DNA from: Bacteriovoracia bacterium
GTDB lineage: Bacteria > Bdellovibrionota > UBA1018 > JBFWNL01
Direction: 5' to 3'
DNA: 64,000 bases
NCBI GenBank assembly: GCA_050251055.1
Contig: JBFWNL010000008.1
Span: 1 to 64,000 of the forward strand
Shown: piece by piece, positions 7,300 to 64,000 of the stretch
Numbering within the stretch: the stretch's first letter is position 1
Layout: the number at the start of each line of letters is the position of its first letter
Notes under the pieces: generated by a model
The model's input: only the letters and a program-made list of their open reading frames with translations
Databases searched by the model: none
What the model was told of the DNA's origin: nothing
Position numbers and translations under genes: made by a program

Positions 7300-7417
7300 G
7301 TTTTCAGACATCGCACAACAGTATCCCGCTCAGCATTTTCCTCTAAAAAGGCACGGCACCGGAGGGGGACGCGCTTGCGGGCCGCGAGGGAGCCCGGGCT
7401 GCAGCCGAGCCCTCAAT

Positions 7418-8911
7418 CTATGAGCCAAAGATAGGGAGGGGCGCTAGGGCGTGATAGCTGCGGCACCACTCCACGAAAGCGTCGCACTCGAGCGCCTGGG
7501 CTAGACTGGCGGTTACCTGGAGTGGGTTGGCCGCCTGAGGGCGAGGCGGCCCGTAAGGAGTACTAGGGTCCCAGCCCAGCAGCGCCACTTCCCGGGAAGC
7601 GCCGTTCGACCGCAACGTCAGATCCCCGCAATTGCCACCGAGCACGTCGGGACCGATGAGGGTGCCCGCCGCGAGCGAACCGTCGGCGAAGCTGCCGTTG
7701 TTATGAGCGGCCCGACGTACGAAGCGATGAATATAAGTCCCGTCCGCCAACGACTCGCCACTCCCTCCGAGGCGAGGAATCCGCTGGGCGCGAGCATGGA
7801 AGATGCGCTGAGCCTCGGCGTACTCACGCTGCAGAACGTACAATGAATCGCCATAATTGGTGATGGAAATCTCCCGATGCCAATCCGTCGATGAGGTGGA
7901 GACCGAAACGAAGCCGGCCAGTCCGTTGGCGAGAAACAACTCACTCAGCCAAAAAAACAGGCGCGGGTTGTGTCCCTGGATGGCGACGGCGGTGGCGATT
8001 CCGTACTCGTCGTAGCCGCTCACGCCGTCGACCGACAAATCCCGTAGCGCTCCCCGTAACGACTCCTGGGTCAATCCGAAATACGCCTGTCCAATTCGGC
8101 TTAGCACCTCGGACAGGTCGCGGACGGCGTTCGTGGCCACGGCGTACTTCTGATTCAGATCTTCCCAGGCGGAAACGACGGCGCTCGCCTCCGTAGCGGA
8201 AAACGAGGTAGTGGCGGGCATGGGTTCGACGAAAAGACGGGCCTGGTTGAGCGTCTCCTCGGCGTTTCCTGGTACCAGGCGAAGCCGAGGGACGTCATAG
8301 GTGGCGGGTGAACCGGCGGGCGCGTAGAGCGAGCTTGCCAGGGCGCCGCCGGCCAGTAACTCGACCGCGGGGCTAAAGGCGAATCGACCGGAATGCCGAT
8401 GCTGATAGCAATTCGCGAGGGCGGGAAATTTACGGTTGGTATTCCATCGCTCGTCGGTTTGCGGCGCATGACCGGTCATGCTCTCCGCCCCTTGAAAAAC
8501 GGCGGTCCGGGCGAGGAGGTCCTCGGGCCAGCTCGCGCACGGGGACGCCAAACGCAGGACACGATTCCCGTAACTACGAATGACCGGCGTACCCGGCACC
8601 AGCCCGGGCGCGAGATCGTAATGGGAGGCGAAATACGGATCGCCTTCGAAGGTGCCGATGGGAGTTCCAAAAAAATCGGAAGGGTTCAATGCGTATCCGG
8701 GGACGGCCAGCGAGGCCGCGGATGGGAGATTTCCGAGATCCGCCGCGATGGAAATGCAAAGCGGAGGAAGCGCGTCGTCCGCGCCCGCGCGCTTGATCAA
8801 TCGATCGAAAAAGTAAGGCCGCAGCCAGGGACTGAGCCCCGCGCCCAACGCAAGAAGGCTGGCGCGGGAAACGAAATCGCGGCGAGTGTACTTTTTTTCG
8901 GGCTTTCTCAT
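7418..8911 (-). CDS. Tat-exported hypothetical protein (DUF1501/DUF1552-like, tentative)
   Basis: TRRDFV twin-arginine leader; DWH motif; last gene of a co-oriented triplet with a haem-c lipoprotein. Confidence 0.65.
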   Translation of the reverse strand: MRKPEKKYTRRDFVSRASLLALGAGLSPWLRPYFFDRLIKRAGADDALPPLCISIAADLGNLPSAASLAVPGYALNPSDFFGTPIGTFEGDPYFASHYDLAPGLVPGTPVIRSYGNRVLRLASPCASWPEDLLARTAVFQGAESMTGHAPQTDERWNTNRKFPALANCYQHRHSGRFAFSPAVELLAGGALASSLYAPAGSPATYDVPRLRLVPGNAEETLNQARLFVEPMPATTSFSATEASAVVSAWEDLNQKYAVATNAVRDLSEVLSRIGQAYFGLTQESLRGALRDLSVDGVSGYDEYGIATAVAIQGHNPRLFFWLSELFLANGLAGFVSVSTSSTDWHREISITNYGDSLYVLQREYAEAQRIFHARAQRIPRLGGSGESLADGTYIHRFVRRAAHNNGSFADGSLAAGTLIGPDVLGGNCGDLTLRSNGASREVALLGWDPSTPYGPPRPQAANPLQVTASLAQALECDAFVEWCRSYHALAPLPIFGS

Positions 8912-42255: not shown

Positions 42256-42339
42256 GCTCGCGTGGTGGAATGGCAGACACGCTGGTCTTAGGAACCAGTG
42301 CCGCAAGGCGTGGGGGTTCGAGTCCCTCCGCGAGCACCA
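42256..42339 (+). tRNA. tRNA-Leu(TAG)
   Basis: GCTCGCG/CGCGAGC acceptor stem, CTGGT-CTTAGGA-ACCAG anticodon arm, long variable arm, CCA. Confidence 0.96.
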
Positions 42340-42478
42340 ACCTTAGTTTTGTTTTCAAAAAAAATACTCCGCTCATGGGGGGACGCCCATCCACGGGCTC
42401 GACCCTTCTTTCCCTTCCTGGACCGGGCCCCCCCATGAGCGGAGTATTTTTTTTGAAAACAAAACTAAGATTGGTGCT
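42333..42478. repeat. tRNA-adjacent fold-back element A (50-bp arms, 46-nt loop)
   Basis: 42333-42382 is the reverse complement of 42429-42478 with one mismatch; the loop core is shared with element B. Confidence 0.92.
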
Positions 42479-42656
42479 GGCTATAATAATGAAACGCGTA
42501 ACGTTTCGTGCCTTGCGGAGGGACTCGAACGGCGGAAGGCGGGTCCCGTTTCTCGACACCTTCCCATGAACTCAGAGTCAATTTCCGACGTCAAACTTCT
42601 GACGATCGATGCTTATCCGAATTGCAGTCACAACCGATAAGCTTTACAGGTCCACC

Positions 42657-62619: not shown

Positions 62620-62774
62620 CTCTCCTCCTTATGACTTGCTCCTGAGCAAATCGGTTATTCTATGCAGCTTGGGGGCGCAAGGCCCGGCCGAACTACGCCT
62701 GTGCTTAAATTGAGGCGCTAAACTAACGGCGAGAGTTCGAAAAATCCACCACGTTTAGCGCTTTTCATGAAGAA

Positions 62775-63001: not shown

Positions 63002-63529
63002 ATGAAGATGCAGTTTATCGGGGGAAAGGCCGCCATCGGCCTGTTGTCGTTCACCATGGGGATACTGGGGTTTGGCGCCACACAAGCGTGGGCGGGTAAT
63101 GCGGAAGTGTATTCCGCGTACGATAGCGCGCCGGAAGGCGATCTGGTCGCAACCCCTGAAAAACCCGTCATGATGGAAGTGACGTCCGAGGAAGCCGTGG
63201 TGGAAGCGGAACGCGCCGCCGCGAAGAATCAAACTCCCGAACAGGGCTTGCAAGTATTGAAGCACCGCTTGGCCCAGCTGGAGCGTGAAAACCGCACTCT
63301 GCGCAAACAGCTTCAACGGAAGGAAATCGCCAGCACCGGACTCGACGCCGTGGATCTCGCCCAGAAAAAAGGGACGTATGAGCCAGTCGCGTCAGACCAG
63401 ACGCAACGAGTTTTGGCGCGCCTCGATACGGTGAAGCAAATCGTGATGAAGCACGGTCGCGCGTACGATTACCGCGTGCTCTCCGAGCAGGAGCTGAGCC
63501 AGATCCAAGCGCGGCTGAAGGCGAATTAA
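63002..63529 (+). CDS. secreted coiled-coil hypothetical protein
   Basis: GAGGGG RBS, signal peptide ending AWA, leucine-zipper segment, HGRAYDYR motif. Confidence 0.75.
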   Translation: MKMQFIGGKAAIGLLSFTMGILGFGATQAWAGNAEVYSAYDSAPEGDLVATPEKPVMMEVTSEEAVVEAERAAAKNQTPEQGLQVLKHRLAQLERENRTLRKQLQRKEIASTGLDAVDLAQKKGTYEPVASDQTQRVLARLDTVKQIVMKHGRAYDYRVLSEQELSQIQARLKAN

Positions 63530-63609
63530 GCTAGCGGTTCACGAGCTTAACGGTTGTAATTTTCGGTGAGATCGCGTACCGATTAGTTCTCTTTCGACAT
63601 TCACACGGC

Positions 63610-63685
63610 GGGTAGGTAGCTCAGTCGGTAGAGCAGCGCCCTGAAAAGGCGCGTGTCGGCGGTTCAATTCCGTCCCTACCCACCA
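63610..63685 (+). tRNA. tRNA-Phe(GAA)
   Basis: GGGTAGG/CCTACCC acceptor stem, GCGCC-CTGAAAA-GGCGC anticodon arm, CCA. Confidence 0.96.
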
Positions 63686-63881
63686 CTCTGTTTTTCCGAT
63701 CAATAAATTCTCCACTTTTCATTCAATCATAAAAAAAGTCAGCACCGGTAGGGGACGCCCATCCATGGGCTTGACCCTTTTTTCCCTTCCTGGGCCGGGA
63801 CACCCCTACCGGTGCTGACTTTTTTTATGATTGAATGAAAAGCTGAGAGATGGCGGCCGGGAAAACGGAGTGGTGGGTAGG
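63675..63881. repeat. tRNA-adjacent fold-back element B (40-bp perfect inner arms plus outer arms pairing the tRNA 3' end)
   Basis: 63715-63754 is the exact reverse complement of 63803-63842; 63675-63697 pairs with 63859-63881. Confidence 0.92.
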
Positions 63882-64000
63882 TATATAAATGCCGTAGGGC
63901 AGGAGCCCGAGATCTTGGCCTAGAGGGCCGAAGCGCATTCCGTCCCTAAAATTGTGCAGGTAAACTAACCGAATAGCCCAGCTGTTCACAGAGGCCGACT

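Follow-up and report, generated by a model that had tools for sequence, protein, structure and literature searches.

Near its downstream end the window, i.e. the whole 64,000-nt stretch of DNA analyzed, contains a tRNA-Phe(GAA) gene with an encoded CCA and, directly after it, a fold-back element termed element B (Table 1). A related fold-back, element A, follows tRNA-Leu(TAG). The perfect 40-bp arms described in an earlier sequence-only reading of this DNA (63715-63754/63803-63842) were present, within 46-nt arms of 96%. In the left inner arm an A7 run (63731-63737) precedes a 17-nt stem (63738-63754), which has a terminal GGGG clamp. The arms enclose a Y-shaped center of ~48 nt, core 1, which consists of a P2 hairpin GCCCA-TCCA-TGGGC (63757-63770) and a TTCCT loop on a P3/P4 stem-loop. 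Model R1 of core 1 scored 82.4 bits at C8:63742-63818. The same center lies in element A in the same orientation, in agreement with the earlier claim of a common core.

Table 1. Coordinates of element B and of related features in the window
Feature	Position	Strand	Basis or remark
tRNA-Phe(GAA) gene, encoded CCA	63610..63685	+	ARAGORN; Rfam RF00005 71.2 bits
Left outer arm	63675..63698	+	24-nt inverted repeat, 92%
Left inner arm	63709..63754	+	46-nt inverted repeat, 96%; pairs with 63803-63848
Core 1, Y-shaped center (~48 nt)	63755..63802	+	21-copy alignment; model R1; MFE fold reproduces Y shape
Right inner arm	63803..63848	+	17-nt stem 63803-63819, then T7 run 63820-63826
Right outer arm, antisense to trailer, CCA, and acceptor 3′ strand	63858..63881	+	Inverted repeat
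AT-rich box TATATAAAT	63882..63890	+	Position of TATAAT/TAAT box before hairpin h in intact units
Probable decayed remnant of antisense T-arm and module 2 (~45 nt)	63891..63936	+	By-eye comparison with module 2 alignment
att-type direct repeat of tRNA-Phe T-loop, T-stem 3′ strand, and first acceptor bases	63937..63948	+	12/12
Element A behind tRNA-Leu(TAG)	42330..42545	+	53-nt arms around core 1; no R2 match
Decayed module 2 copy behind tRNA-Lys(CTT)	7342..7435	+	R2 24 bits, E 0.0095, filters off

The left outer arm comprises the last 11 nt of tRNA-Phe (acceptor 3′ strand, discriminator, and CCA) and 13 nt of trailer. As the sequence-only reading had proposed, the right outer arm is complementary to the tRNA 3′ end and trailer (24 nt, 92%), and the right arms are inverted copies of local tRNA-trailer sequence that become less perfect outward. 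The right outer arm corresponds to the start of the "A arm" of a conserved tRNA-linked unit (see below), and both of its mismatches place T opposite G on the + strand. The AT-rich box TATATAAAT follows at once, in the place taken by TATAAT (42485-42490) in element A, as already noted in that reading; hairpin h, which follows this box in intact units, is absent from element B. Farther downstream, GAGCCCG (63903-63909) and GCCGAAGCGC (63927-63936) are identical to words of a second conserved element, module 2. Model R2 of module 2, run on the whole window with filters off, scored neither element B nor element A; the sole scorer was the tRNA-Lys(CTT) remnant. Because R2 gives no score here, we infer the module 2 remnant of element B from its position and the two shared words.

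The copy of the T-arm and acceptor previously reported near 63937 is an exact 12-nt direct repeat, ATTCCGTCCCTA, present at 63667-63678 and 63937-63948. With C63936 included, it matches 13 of 14 nt from T-loop C56, with one A missing. The att-like character proposed for it is supported by this start, because direct copies following module 2 at other tRNAs and in other genomes also begin at C56. The 64-kb window contains just three inverted repeats of at least 24 nt within 400 nt, all at the two tRNA 3′ ends of elements A and B; the fold-back of element B is thus beyond chance. By sequence comparison, element B appears to be a decayed solo unit whose fold-back is intact and whose module 2 is cut to about 45 nt.

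For read support, Logan contigs were taken from two DNA runs that belong to a single study and may represent the source sample. They covered 63300-63744, 63715-63781, and 63813-64000 with no differences. These contigs broke only inside the element B palindrome, and 63782-63812 was covered only by contigs of paralogous copies; they thus agree with the assembly but do not independently span the complete fold-back. The two runs contained 92% of the words searched. The listed RNA runs contained small word shares only, and RNA run X18 covered just the tRNA part of the region.

The inner arms have the features of a bidirectional terminator: a 17-bp stem between the A7 and T7 runs, placed directly after tRNA-Phe. 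A simple terminator scan flagged only a partial site at element B, the - strand half, and a simple sigma-70 promoter scan of 63400-64000 called no promoter. On its predicted structure, the inner-arm hairpin is bidirectional intrinsic-terminator-like. Like bidirectional intrinsic (rho-independent) terminators, the unit has a GC-rich stem and A- and T-runs directly after the gene, between convergent genes. In contrast to the 3-8 nt loop of such terminators, its loop is the 48-nt three-way junction of core 1, and in both directions its palindrome extends a further 40-60 nt past the T-run and enters the tRNA. Folding of the full 281-nt element B transcript opened the acceptor stem (-155.5 kcal/mol), whereas RNA ending at 63828 (T7 run) gave an ordinary cloverleaf followed by a terminator hairpin. 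Since the T7 run precedes the right outer arm, most tRNA transcripts should end before the antisense acceptor arm. The suggestion that the outer pairing competes with tRNA folding therefore held for read-through RNA but not for RNA ending at the T7 run.

Core 1 forms the tip of an A-run/stem/T-run hairpin, and model R1 detected 23 copies of it in this genome; most copies are flanked by A-runs and T-runs. Fifteen of them stand immediately 3′ of a same-strand ARAGORN tRNA gene (14 genes in all), one lies behind a tRNA-like 3′ end, and seven lie behind protein genes or in other intergenic regions. The orientation relative to the tRNA was constant in all tRNA-linked copies. Alignment of 21 genomic copies showed pairing in 91.2% of cells and, among these copies within one genome, a covariation of 0.319 vs. 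0.146 in shuffles (0/500). G-U pairs outnumbered A-C pairs on the tRNA-sense strand (14 vs. 6). Only the center is common to the copies; the 10-17 nt beside the clamp and the outer arms are locus-specific. On the antisense strand, GGA occurs in loop 1 in 21/21 copies (sense WTCC) and in loop 2 in 15/21 (sense TCC). Outside this genome (G000), R1 scores were weak and confined to 4 of 40 genomes from the same order (E up to 0.001) and 3 of 150 genomes of a phylum sample (E up to 0.0001). A search with the exact degenerate core 1 word, own genome left out, returned 0 matches in genome_contigs and 0 in metagenome_contigs.

Fold-backs of this type are frequent at tRNA genes in this genome. A palindrome whose far arm is antisense to the trailer, CCA, and acceptor 3′ strand follows 17 of the 45 tRNA genes, by a criterion of at least 12 of the 16 nt formed by acceptor 3′ strand, CCA, and 5 nt of trailer within 450 nt downstream. 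The upstream control of this search gave none above 12. The palindromes reach 6-14 nt into the tRNA, and some that lack core 1 also reach CCA, e.g. those behind Arg-CCT and Arg-TCG. The mismatches at element B had been described as G-U compatible; this is correct for both of them, but 23 fold-backs taken together showed no such trend (24 G-U, 32 A-C, and 60 other mismatches). Tandem units were found at Arg-ACG and Asp in this genome and at Leu-TAG in G007. In element A the arms are followed by the TATAAT box, hairpin h (GAAACGCG-TAA-CGTTTC), GTGCCTT, and an antisense T-arm GCGGAGGGACTCGAAC at 42515-42530, after which only the first bases of module 2 remain (GGCGGAAGG). Its sequence suggests that element A is a second decayed unit. 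At the Lys-CTT locus, CGAGCCCTC is a direct tRNA copy from C56.

Module 2 is a ~96-nt element of two hairpins with covariation. Across 37 copies drawn from 19 genomes, pairing is seen in 95.0% of cells, compared with 28-37% in slid controls, and 23 of 27 pairs have changed on both sides. Of 996 cells, 937 are Watson-Crick, 9 are G-U, and 9 are A-C. Within the order, R2 matched 19 of 116 genomes (this genome and 18 others), which represent 18 of 70 genera; in a sample from across the phylum Bdellovibrionota it matched 18 of 151. This genome has eight module 2 loci. A tRNA or tmRNA gene lies on the same strand 61-263 nt upstream in 28 of the 37 copies. In 24 of these 28 linked units an antisense T-arm (at least 10/12 nt) directly precedes module 2; the tRNA 3′ end (at least 19/21 nt) directly follows it in 14, and its first 9 nt only in 8 more. 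These direct copies start at T-loop C56. The left flank was also considered as part of a tRNA copied in sense orientation and interrupted in its T-loop; this was rejected, because the reverse complement of the 3′ strand fits better in 25/28. A 4-nt CGAA target duplication around module 2 was likewise rejected, because CGAA belongs to the inverted repeat.

The order AT box, hairpin h, GTACCTTA, antisense T-arm, module 2, direct copy recurred in five families of the order and in other parts of the phylum, and the module 2 family serves at least a dozen different tRNAs as well as tmRNA. The antisense acceptor arm of element B, being a conserved part of this phylum-wide unit, is evidently no local accident. 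An intact unit runs from the tRNA 3′ end through a palindromic A-run/stem/T-run hairpin starting at CCA, the antisense CCA and acceptor, the AT-rich box, small hairpin h and GTACCTTA, to the antisense T-stem 3′ strand and T-loop, module 2, and a direct tRNA copy from C56 to CCA. Most units are 150-400 nt long and gene-less. Folded as DNA, the Gln-TTG unit (284 nt) forms a single long stem with a bulge and caps (z -11.3). Rfam 15 was searched at a permissive threshold with the region itself and with 11 core and 3 module 2 loci, and returned only tRNA and chance hairpin/microRNA-type matches; core 1 and module 2 are both absent from Rfam.

An integrase beyond the window end, as raised in the sequence-only reading, was not found: there was none between tRNA-Phe and the direct repeat or within 6 kb downstream. 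None was present near any of the eight module 2 loci of this genome either, all 8 PF00589 matches lying elsewhere. In other genomes, only 4 of about 67 R2 matches lie 195-364 nt downstream of a same-strand integrase gene, one of them also with an HTH_17 Xis-like gene, and in G024 two units flank a ~3-kb block with integrase fragments. Cargo after the repeats at some loci includes an AAA_15 ATPase, a restriction enzyme, and a putative toxin-antitoxin pair, the last judged from its sequence. Homologues of the adjoining integrase occurred in 65 of 116 genomes of the order, compared with 19 of 116 for module 2, and the integrase query had no match in three module-2 genomes (G006, G180, and G181); there is thus no specific co-occurrence of integrase and module 2. 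At 3 of the 4 integrase loci (the three that were readable), a shortened tRNA 3′-like piece (CGAATCC+NCCA) lies between the integrase and the unit, so that the island may simply have landed beside a pre-existing unit. Units also differ between congeners: compared with G181, G180 has a degraded module 2, and in G229 half of the module 2 seen in G230 is deleted, while G182 lacks the unit at the corresponding tRNA-Gln. A clean pair of filled and empty sites was not found in genera g114 and g140, where the flanks have diverged too far to define an empty site, or between G020 and its congeners.

We lean, by a small margin over an even chance, toward a composite unit that joins a bidirectional terminator to an att-type module of tRNA-integrating islands and is kept palindromic at the DNA level. 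With the same slight preference, element B is taken to be a decayed, gene-less "solo" copy of a unit present at tRNA/tmRNA 3′ ends across Bdellovibrionota. The unit would serve as attachment-site module for islands that a tyrosine integrase recombines within the T-loop. Such an element would supply a replacement tRNA 3′ end together with its own bidirectional terminator, which in this genome would bear the extra core 1 at its tip, and the displaced original tRNA 3′ end would be left behind as the direct repeat. A regenerated target, a displaced fragment, and a crossover in the T-loop are established for islands and phages, according to PMC4383910 and PMC1762012. At tRNA-Phe, the fold-back would still be the terminator of the tRNA and shield it against the convergent gene, the module 2 side having rotted. 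We infer the integrase origin of the repeats, transcription termination at the hairpin, and the role of module 2.

Arm complementarity would be kept by copying between the arms at the DNA level, through template switching or gene conversion. The evidence for such upkeep is the mismatch spectrum, in which G-U does not exceed A-C either in the arms or in module 2 (counts above); RNA-level selection does not appear to be what keeps the arms. The absence of an integrase near element B or any module 2 locus of this genome, of a specific co-occurrence of integrase and module 2, of a clean empty site, and of an R2 score for the module 2 remnant of element B counts against the attachment-site reading, as does the shortened tRNA 3′-like piece between integrase and unit. 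This reading also specifies no single-stranded role for module 2 and leaves the matching of the unit to a dozen different tRNAs unaccounted for. Because a double-stranded integrase site needs no compensatory changes, the strong covariation of module 2 points to a role as single-stranded RNA or DNA.

A further reading, at the DNA level, is that the unit arose by integration of a tiny DNA element, self-complementary over nearly its full length, whose folded stem is the attachment site for a tyrosine recombinase; we consider this unlikely, though less so than the alternatives that follow. A single-stranded circle would fold into a rod. Its stem would reproduce, as a duplex, the tRNA gene between T-loop and trailer; the tip of the terminator (in this genome core 1) would cap one end and module 2 the other, and hairpin h would bulge out. 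This stem would recombine with the tRNA T-loop in the manner of CTX-phi attP(+) or integron attC, and tandem genomic units would be concatemers. Tyrosine recombinases act on folded single strands (PMC4246890 and PMC5027507). The inverted half-sites of the unit, ~90 nt apart, could fold into a duplex target from T-loop to CCA, and the bulge in one arm, strictly Watson-Crick pairing, and tandem arrays are further likenesses; in contrast to CTX-phi and attC, the units target the tRNA T-loop, not dif or attI. No single-stranded intermediate was seen with the units, nor, on non-systematic inspection, were phage or conjugation genes.

The locus-specific, nearly perfect arms without G-U bias, and the variable depth of 6-14 nt into the tRNA, would also be produced by purely local palindrome growth, in which replication template switching widens the terminator hairpin of a tRNA by copying its 3′ end, with no element or site-specific recombination. 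Template switching can make and maintain perfect stems and multi-base compensatory changes, according to PMC8794818, and palindromes without core 1 reach CCA at Arg-CCT and Arg-TCG. However, local growth leaves unexplained the shared core with its fixed orientation at 15 tRNA-linked sites, the conserved order from AT box to direct copy, seen in five families of the order and elsewhere in the phylum, and the constant start at C56; random creep gives no direct repeats. We regard it as improbable as the sole explanation, while template switching is probably operating as a maintenance process inside the element. An RNA-level device, all forms taken jointly, seems to us just as improbable. Its three forms are (a) regulation of tRNA 3′ processing or stability by the trailer hairpin and antisense acceptor, (b) a small RNA that extends from hairpin h across module 2 as far as the CCA copy and whose 3′ end is tRNA-like (minihelix-like), and (c) binding of CsrA by antisense core 1 through AUGGAU and CAGGAUG hairpin loops. 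The covarying structures of both modules, the acceptor stem opened in the read-through fold, the conserved TATAAT/TAAT box before hairpin h, and the excess of G-U over A-C in core 1 are all consistent with such a device. For form (c), CsrA is encoded in the genome, and one core copy weakly matches the Csr/Rsm-type sRNA family TwoAYGGAY on the antisense strand (28.5 bits, E 0.34); however, this score lies below the gathering score of 43, and there was no match at element B. The T-run precedes the antisense acceptor arm, no sigma-70 promoter was called at element B, and no Rfam family reached threshold, all of which argues against an RNA device. So does the near absence of G-U in module 2 without strand bias, although template switching could yield the same in an RNA gene. 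The patchy, multi-copy distribution, with copies decayed in congeners and in this genome, is unlike that of a housekeeping RNA.

An assembly artefact is hardly credible. The genome is a metagenome bin and the Logan contigs break inside the palindrome, as would be expected of inverted chimeras from metagenome library preparation or assembly. However, such chimeras would not give 23 copies with a covarying core in constant orientation or the same architecture in 18 further genomes assembled from this order, and the contigs continue into unique sequence on both sides. A retroelement primer-binding site was rejected, because the complementarity extends into the trailer; the arm was thus copied from DNA, not from mature tRNA. 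A ribozyme-bearing retrozyme was also rejected, because no ribozyme family matched.

With the attachment-site reading as the preferred one, the units can be compared with known systems. Gene-less derivatives of integrative elements include cis-mobilisable elements and "solo" att remnants. The units resemble these in keeping att-flanking sequence without recombination genes, and those of G024 flank a degraded island; their phylum-wide structural conservation, however, is unusual for a mere remnant. REP/REPIN sequences (RAYT transposases) and MITEs are multi-copy intergenic hairpin repeats, often at gene ends. The units differ from them in having a conserved center and local arms, which is the reverse arrangement, and no target-site duplication was seen. 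A search of this genome (G000, 93.5% complete) for PF01797 (Y1 transposase) gave 0 matches. As in tRNA/tmRNA-integrated islands and prophages (PMC4383910 and PMC1762012), an intact gene is followed by a direct 3′ copy from the T-loop, and units may be stacked in tandem. Integrase/Xis genes and defence or toxin-antitoxin-like cargo near some units are a further likeness to such islands; in contrast, the units are mostly gene-less, with inverted and direct tRNA 3′ copies around a covarying 96-nt module. Template-switch (quasi-palindrome) mutations share with the units the perfect locus-specific arms, the lack of G-U excess, and multi-base compensatory differences between congeners (G180 vs. G181), according to PMC8794818; they would account for maintenance but not for the conserved centers, the orientation, the C56 boundary, or the direct repeats. 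A full-text literature search, covering few subscription journals, found no description of the unit architecture.

Islands with genes for defence, virulence, and metabolism land mainly in tRNA genes, and the junctions of such islands are usually dismissed as scar. The "scar" described here holds two conserved covarying modules, one of which, module 2, sits between inverted and direct copies of the tRNA 3′ end. If the unit is an attachment module, it would represent a new way to build att sites and to supply a replacement terminator, and models R1 and R2 would provide a sequence signature by which the junctions of islands could be located in Bdellovibrionota. If the unit is instead a folded-DNA or RNA device, it would represent a new class of element.

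A near-palindrome of ~207 bp was found directly 3′ of tRNA-Phe(GAA), and its left outer arm takes in the final 11 nt of the gene. A sequence-only reading had proposed this fold-back (element B), and both its arms and the repeat of T-arm/acceptor 12-mer ATTCCGTCCCTA of tRNA-Phe (second copy at 63937-63948) were confirmed. The right outer arm complements the tRNA-Phe 3′ end and trailer, and the earlier suggestion of copying from the local tRNA trailer holds; TATATAAAT comes after the right arm. Inverted repeats of at least 24 nt within 400 nt occurred only three times in the whole window, all at the 3′ ends of tRNA-Phe and tRNA-Leu(TAG). Element B and the fold-back behind tRNA-Leu(TAG) (element A) have a ~48-nt centre in common, in the same orientation, and differ in their arms. 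Logan contigs from two DNA runs of one study, possibly the source sample, covered the element B region in three pieces with no differences, and broke inside the palindrome only.

Features of tRNA-Phe(GAA), element B and its centre (core 1), with window positions
Feature	Position	Description
tRNA-Phe(GAA)	63610-63685	
Element B inner arms	63709-63754 / 63803-63848	46 nt, 96% complementary; central 40 bp perfect
Element B outer arms	63675-63698 / 63858-63881	24 nt, 92% complementary
Core 1 stem		Locus-specific, long, GGGGG/CCCCC clamp at end
Core 1 hairpin		GCSCA-UCCA-UGSGC
Core 1 second stem		Inner hairpin, loop nUCSU

The shared centre, core 1, folds as a three-way junction. Pairing was kept in 91.2% of cells among 21 genomic copies, which are paralogues (slid controls, 34-55%), and covariation was 0.319 vs 0.146 in shuffles (0/500); because the copies are paralogous, this covariation reflects few independent events. 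Model R1, built on core 1, detected 23 copies in the source genome G000 (3.77 Mb, 21 contigs, 93.5% complete; the window is on contig C8), assigned to Bdellovibrionota by a GroEL-like ORF and the sole member of its family within the genome collection. Fifteen were just 3′ of 14 tRNA genes, all on the tRNA's strand, one followed a tRNA-like 3′ end without an ARAGORN call, and seven followed protein genes or lay elsewhere between genes. Core 1 fold-backs at G000:C2:198386-198463 and G000:C4:191859-191915 follow the tRNA-like ends GAGTTCGAATCTCACTCTCTCCGCCA and GGTTCGTCCGTTGTTCCGGTCGGTCCGCCA, at which ARAGORN called no tRNA gene; pseudo-tRNAs, displaced fragments or an unusual tRNA could account for them. 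Most core 1 copies lie between an A-run and a T-run. The order in element B is A7, 17-bp stem, core 1, stem, T7, and its inner part therefore resembles a bidirectional intrinsic terminator whose loop is structured and oversized. Outside G000, R1 scores were weak and confined to few genomes (5/41 relatives and 4/151 phylum genomes, both counts including G000), and the exact core 1 word was absent in two public collections. Diverged equivalents were present behind tRNA-Phe and tRNA-Tyr of another genome, G025. The terminator hairpin of a larger unit carries core 1 as an additional cap, abundant in G000 and diverged in G025 and G013.

The larger unit was evident behind several tRNAs as a conserved series. 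Past the right arm come a TATAAT-like box, hairpin h (small and covarying, GAAACGCG-loop-CGTTTC), GTACCTTA and the antisense T-arm, in which the tRNA's T-stem 3′ strand and T-loop are copied in inverted orientation. Next is a conserved ~96-nt module 2, which folds as two hairpin domains, and last a direct tRNA copy from T-loop C56 onward. Model R2, built on module 2, found eight copies in G000, matches in 19/116 genomes of the order (18/70 genera, 5 families, 1-8 copies per genome) and matches in 18/151 genomes of a phylum-wide sample. A strict module 2 word hit 12 stretches in the species collection, of which 10 were labelled Bdellovibrionales, Bdellovibrionia, Oligoflexia or Bacteriovoracaceae, one 'bacterium' and one 'WWE3'. 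In an alignment of 37 copies, whose fitting to the model flatters structure, 95.0% of cells were paired (slid controls, 28-37%) and 23 of 27 pairs had changes on both sides. The context between tRNA and module 2 is very regular: a same-strand tRNA or tmRNA lies 61-263 nt upstream of 28/37 copies, and the antisense T-arm immediately precedes 24 of these 28. At least 19/21 nt of the tRNA 3′ end immediately follow module 2 in 14/28, and the first 9 nt in eight more; the left flank matches the 3′ strand better in reverse complement than in sense orientation in 25/28.

An antisense copy of the acceptor 3′ strand, CCA and 5 nt of trailer was found within 450 nt downstream of 17/45 G000 tRNA genes (at least 12/16 nt matched; at least 14/16 for nine of the 17), and the same test upstream gave none above 12/16. 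The tRNA-linked palindromes of G000 have a span of 31-217 nt and take in 6-14 nt of the tRNA. In simple units of other genomes, an ordinary-looking A-run/GC-stem/T-run hairpin begins at the tRNA's CCA, and its far side terminates in TGG with a few bases complementary to the acceptor; therefore, the antisense acceptor arm at element B is a conserved component of the unit. Behind tRNA-Leu(CAG) of G020, a diverged ~150-nt module occupies the module 2 position, with an antisense T-arm on one side and, on the other, a direct copy that is complete from C56 to CCA. R2 did not match it, which means that R2 misses part of the family. Three congeners with a tRNA-Phe - tRNA-Leu pair (genus g11; L145, L148, L149) have a conserved ~200-nt stretch after tRNA-Leu(CAG), apparently non-coding and structured-looking.

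Element B has the fold-back and AT box of this unit; hairpin h is missing, and only ~45 nt now separate the box from the direct repeat. GAGCCCG and the 10-mer GCCGAAGCGC, both words of module 2, persist in this stretch; because R2 gave it no score, it is called a putative module 2 remnant from its position and these words. The direct repeat begins at C56 (13/14 nt), in agreement with the att-like scar suggested earlier. Element A retains the box and hairpin h, an antisense T-arm that is exact over 16 nt, and the first module 2 bases; the remainder is gone. Downstream of element B are a convergent 275-aa gene and then housekeeping-looking ORFs, one of which reads like trigger factor; an integrase, envisaged past the window end, was not seen within 6 kb of it. 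Upstream of a 180-aa ORF and tRNA-Phe, GTTCGAAAAATCCACCA (62733-62750) is a shortened tRNA-3′-end-like piece of the CGAATCC+NCCA type; G013 and G024 have such pieces beside integrases. This ORF, tRNA-Phe and element B lie in a 1.24-kb segment bracketed by a 24-nt direct repeat (79%; 62704-62727 / 63946-63969), which may mark an old insertion boundary.

Signs that this DNA is selfish or recombinational are tandem units, decayed copies, insertion, integrase neighbours and cargo-like genes. Tandem units were found at tRNA-Arg(ACG) and tRNA-Asp in G000 and tRNA-Leu(TAG) in G007. Behind tRNA-Arg(ACG) (G000:C8:133968-134540), the ~290-nt unit (tRNA 3′ end from C56, fold-back with a different 70-nt centre replacing core 1, hairpin h, antisense T-arm, module 2) is tandemly duplicated, with identical copies. 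The trailer past the direct repeat copies at least 21/24 nt of the tRNA trailer in 3/15 loci. Module 2 is degraded in G180 vs G181 and half-deleted in G229 vs G230, and G182 has no unit at the same tRNA-Gln. The G025 unit sits between tRNA-Tyr and tRNA-Gly of a Thr-Tyr-Gly-Thr-tuf cluster, where G000 has a 63-nt spacer. An integrase gene lies on the same strand 195-364 nt upstream of four R2 matches, one of which also has an HTH_17 Xis-like gene, and in G024 a ~3-kb block with integrase fragments separates two units. Cargo-like genes after the repeat encode an AAA_15 ATPase (G000 tRNA-His) and, in other genomes, a DpnII-type restriction enzyme, small secreted proteins and an apparent toxin-antitoxin pair.

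In another family of the phylum, three R2 matches 270-375 nt apart (G089:C115:9217-9953) form a tandem unit array. Two unrelated units, at tRNA-Asp of G000:C3 (L170) and tRNA-Tyr of G025 (L174:1686-2015; ~109 aa, six cysteines), each have a small ORF with a signal-peptide-like start just past the direct copy of the tRNA; these ORFs look like minimal cargo. A reverse-transcriptase gene (RVT_1, E 2e-23; G006:C8, L198, 543-1391 minus strand of locus) is divergent from a module 2 unit ~110 nt away, upstream of it, with no tRNA within 1.5 kb.

Other observations speak against a simple integrase origin. None of the eight G000 module 2 loci has an integrase, and the integrase family, found in 65/116 genomes, is common without tracking module 2. 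At 3/4 integrase-adjoining loci a CGAATCC+NCCA piece lies between integrase and unit; the integrase island may therefore have landed beside a pre-existing unit.

Whether the palindrome acts as RNA was assessed from folds and mismatches. The predicted fold of the full read-through RNA opened the acceptor stem (-155.5 kcal/mol, z -13.3), and that of RNA ending at the T-run kept the cloverleaf; the proposed competition with tRNA folding is thus possible for read-through RNA only. The antisense strand of core 1 has AUGGAU and CAGGAUG loops (e.g. window 63757-63795, minus strand), which resemble CsrA sites; the genome has a CsrA gene (G000:C14:55710-55868), and one antisense copy gave a sub-threshold TwoAYGGAY Rfam match (28.5 bits vs gathering score 43). 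Possible CsrA binding is a lead only. Fold-back arm mismatches over 1141 pairs were 24 G-U, 32 A-C and 60 other, with no strand bias; module 2 pairs were Watson-Crick in 937/996 cells, with 9 G-U and 9 A-C, and core 1 leaned slightly to the tRNA-sense strand (G-U 14 vs A-C 6). These statistics give no backing to the competition. Passages of PMC8794818 describe template switching as creating or keeping perfect stems without G-U intermediates, RNA genes included, so the counts favour DNA-level copying as the maintenance process and are compatible with an RNA role. An RNA device is an unlikely explanation of element B, and pure palindrome creep seems equally improbable.

When cut at C56, the 284-nt Gln-TTG unit folded as DNA into one long stem (z -11.3), with the tRNA 3′ end and trailer paired with their own antisense copies, hairpin h as a bulge, core 1 as one cap and module 2 as a structured tail, which in a circular form would seal the opposite end. 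This fold is the basis for a reading in which the unit would be a self-complementary single strand and its stem the attachment site. The folded CTX-phi attP(+) has two inverted half-sites with a ~90-nt structured loop between; the unit also has putative inverted half-sites around a ~90-nt structured loop. Parts of PMC4246890 describe Xer recombinases acting on CTX-phi attP(+) in its folded, single-stranded form, and part of PMC5027507 gives integron attC as the other known folded example. By this analogy the unit could be a folded single-strand recombination site, a tentative idea that we rate as rather doubtful. The best-supported explanation, which we hold to be somewhat probable, is that element B derives from integrative elements, as a solo and now decayed copy of their attachment/terminator unit for tRNA genes, and that its palindrome arms have been homogenised at the DNA level.
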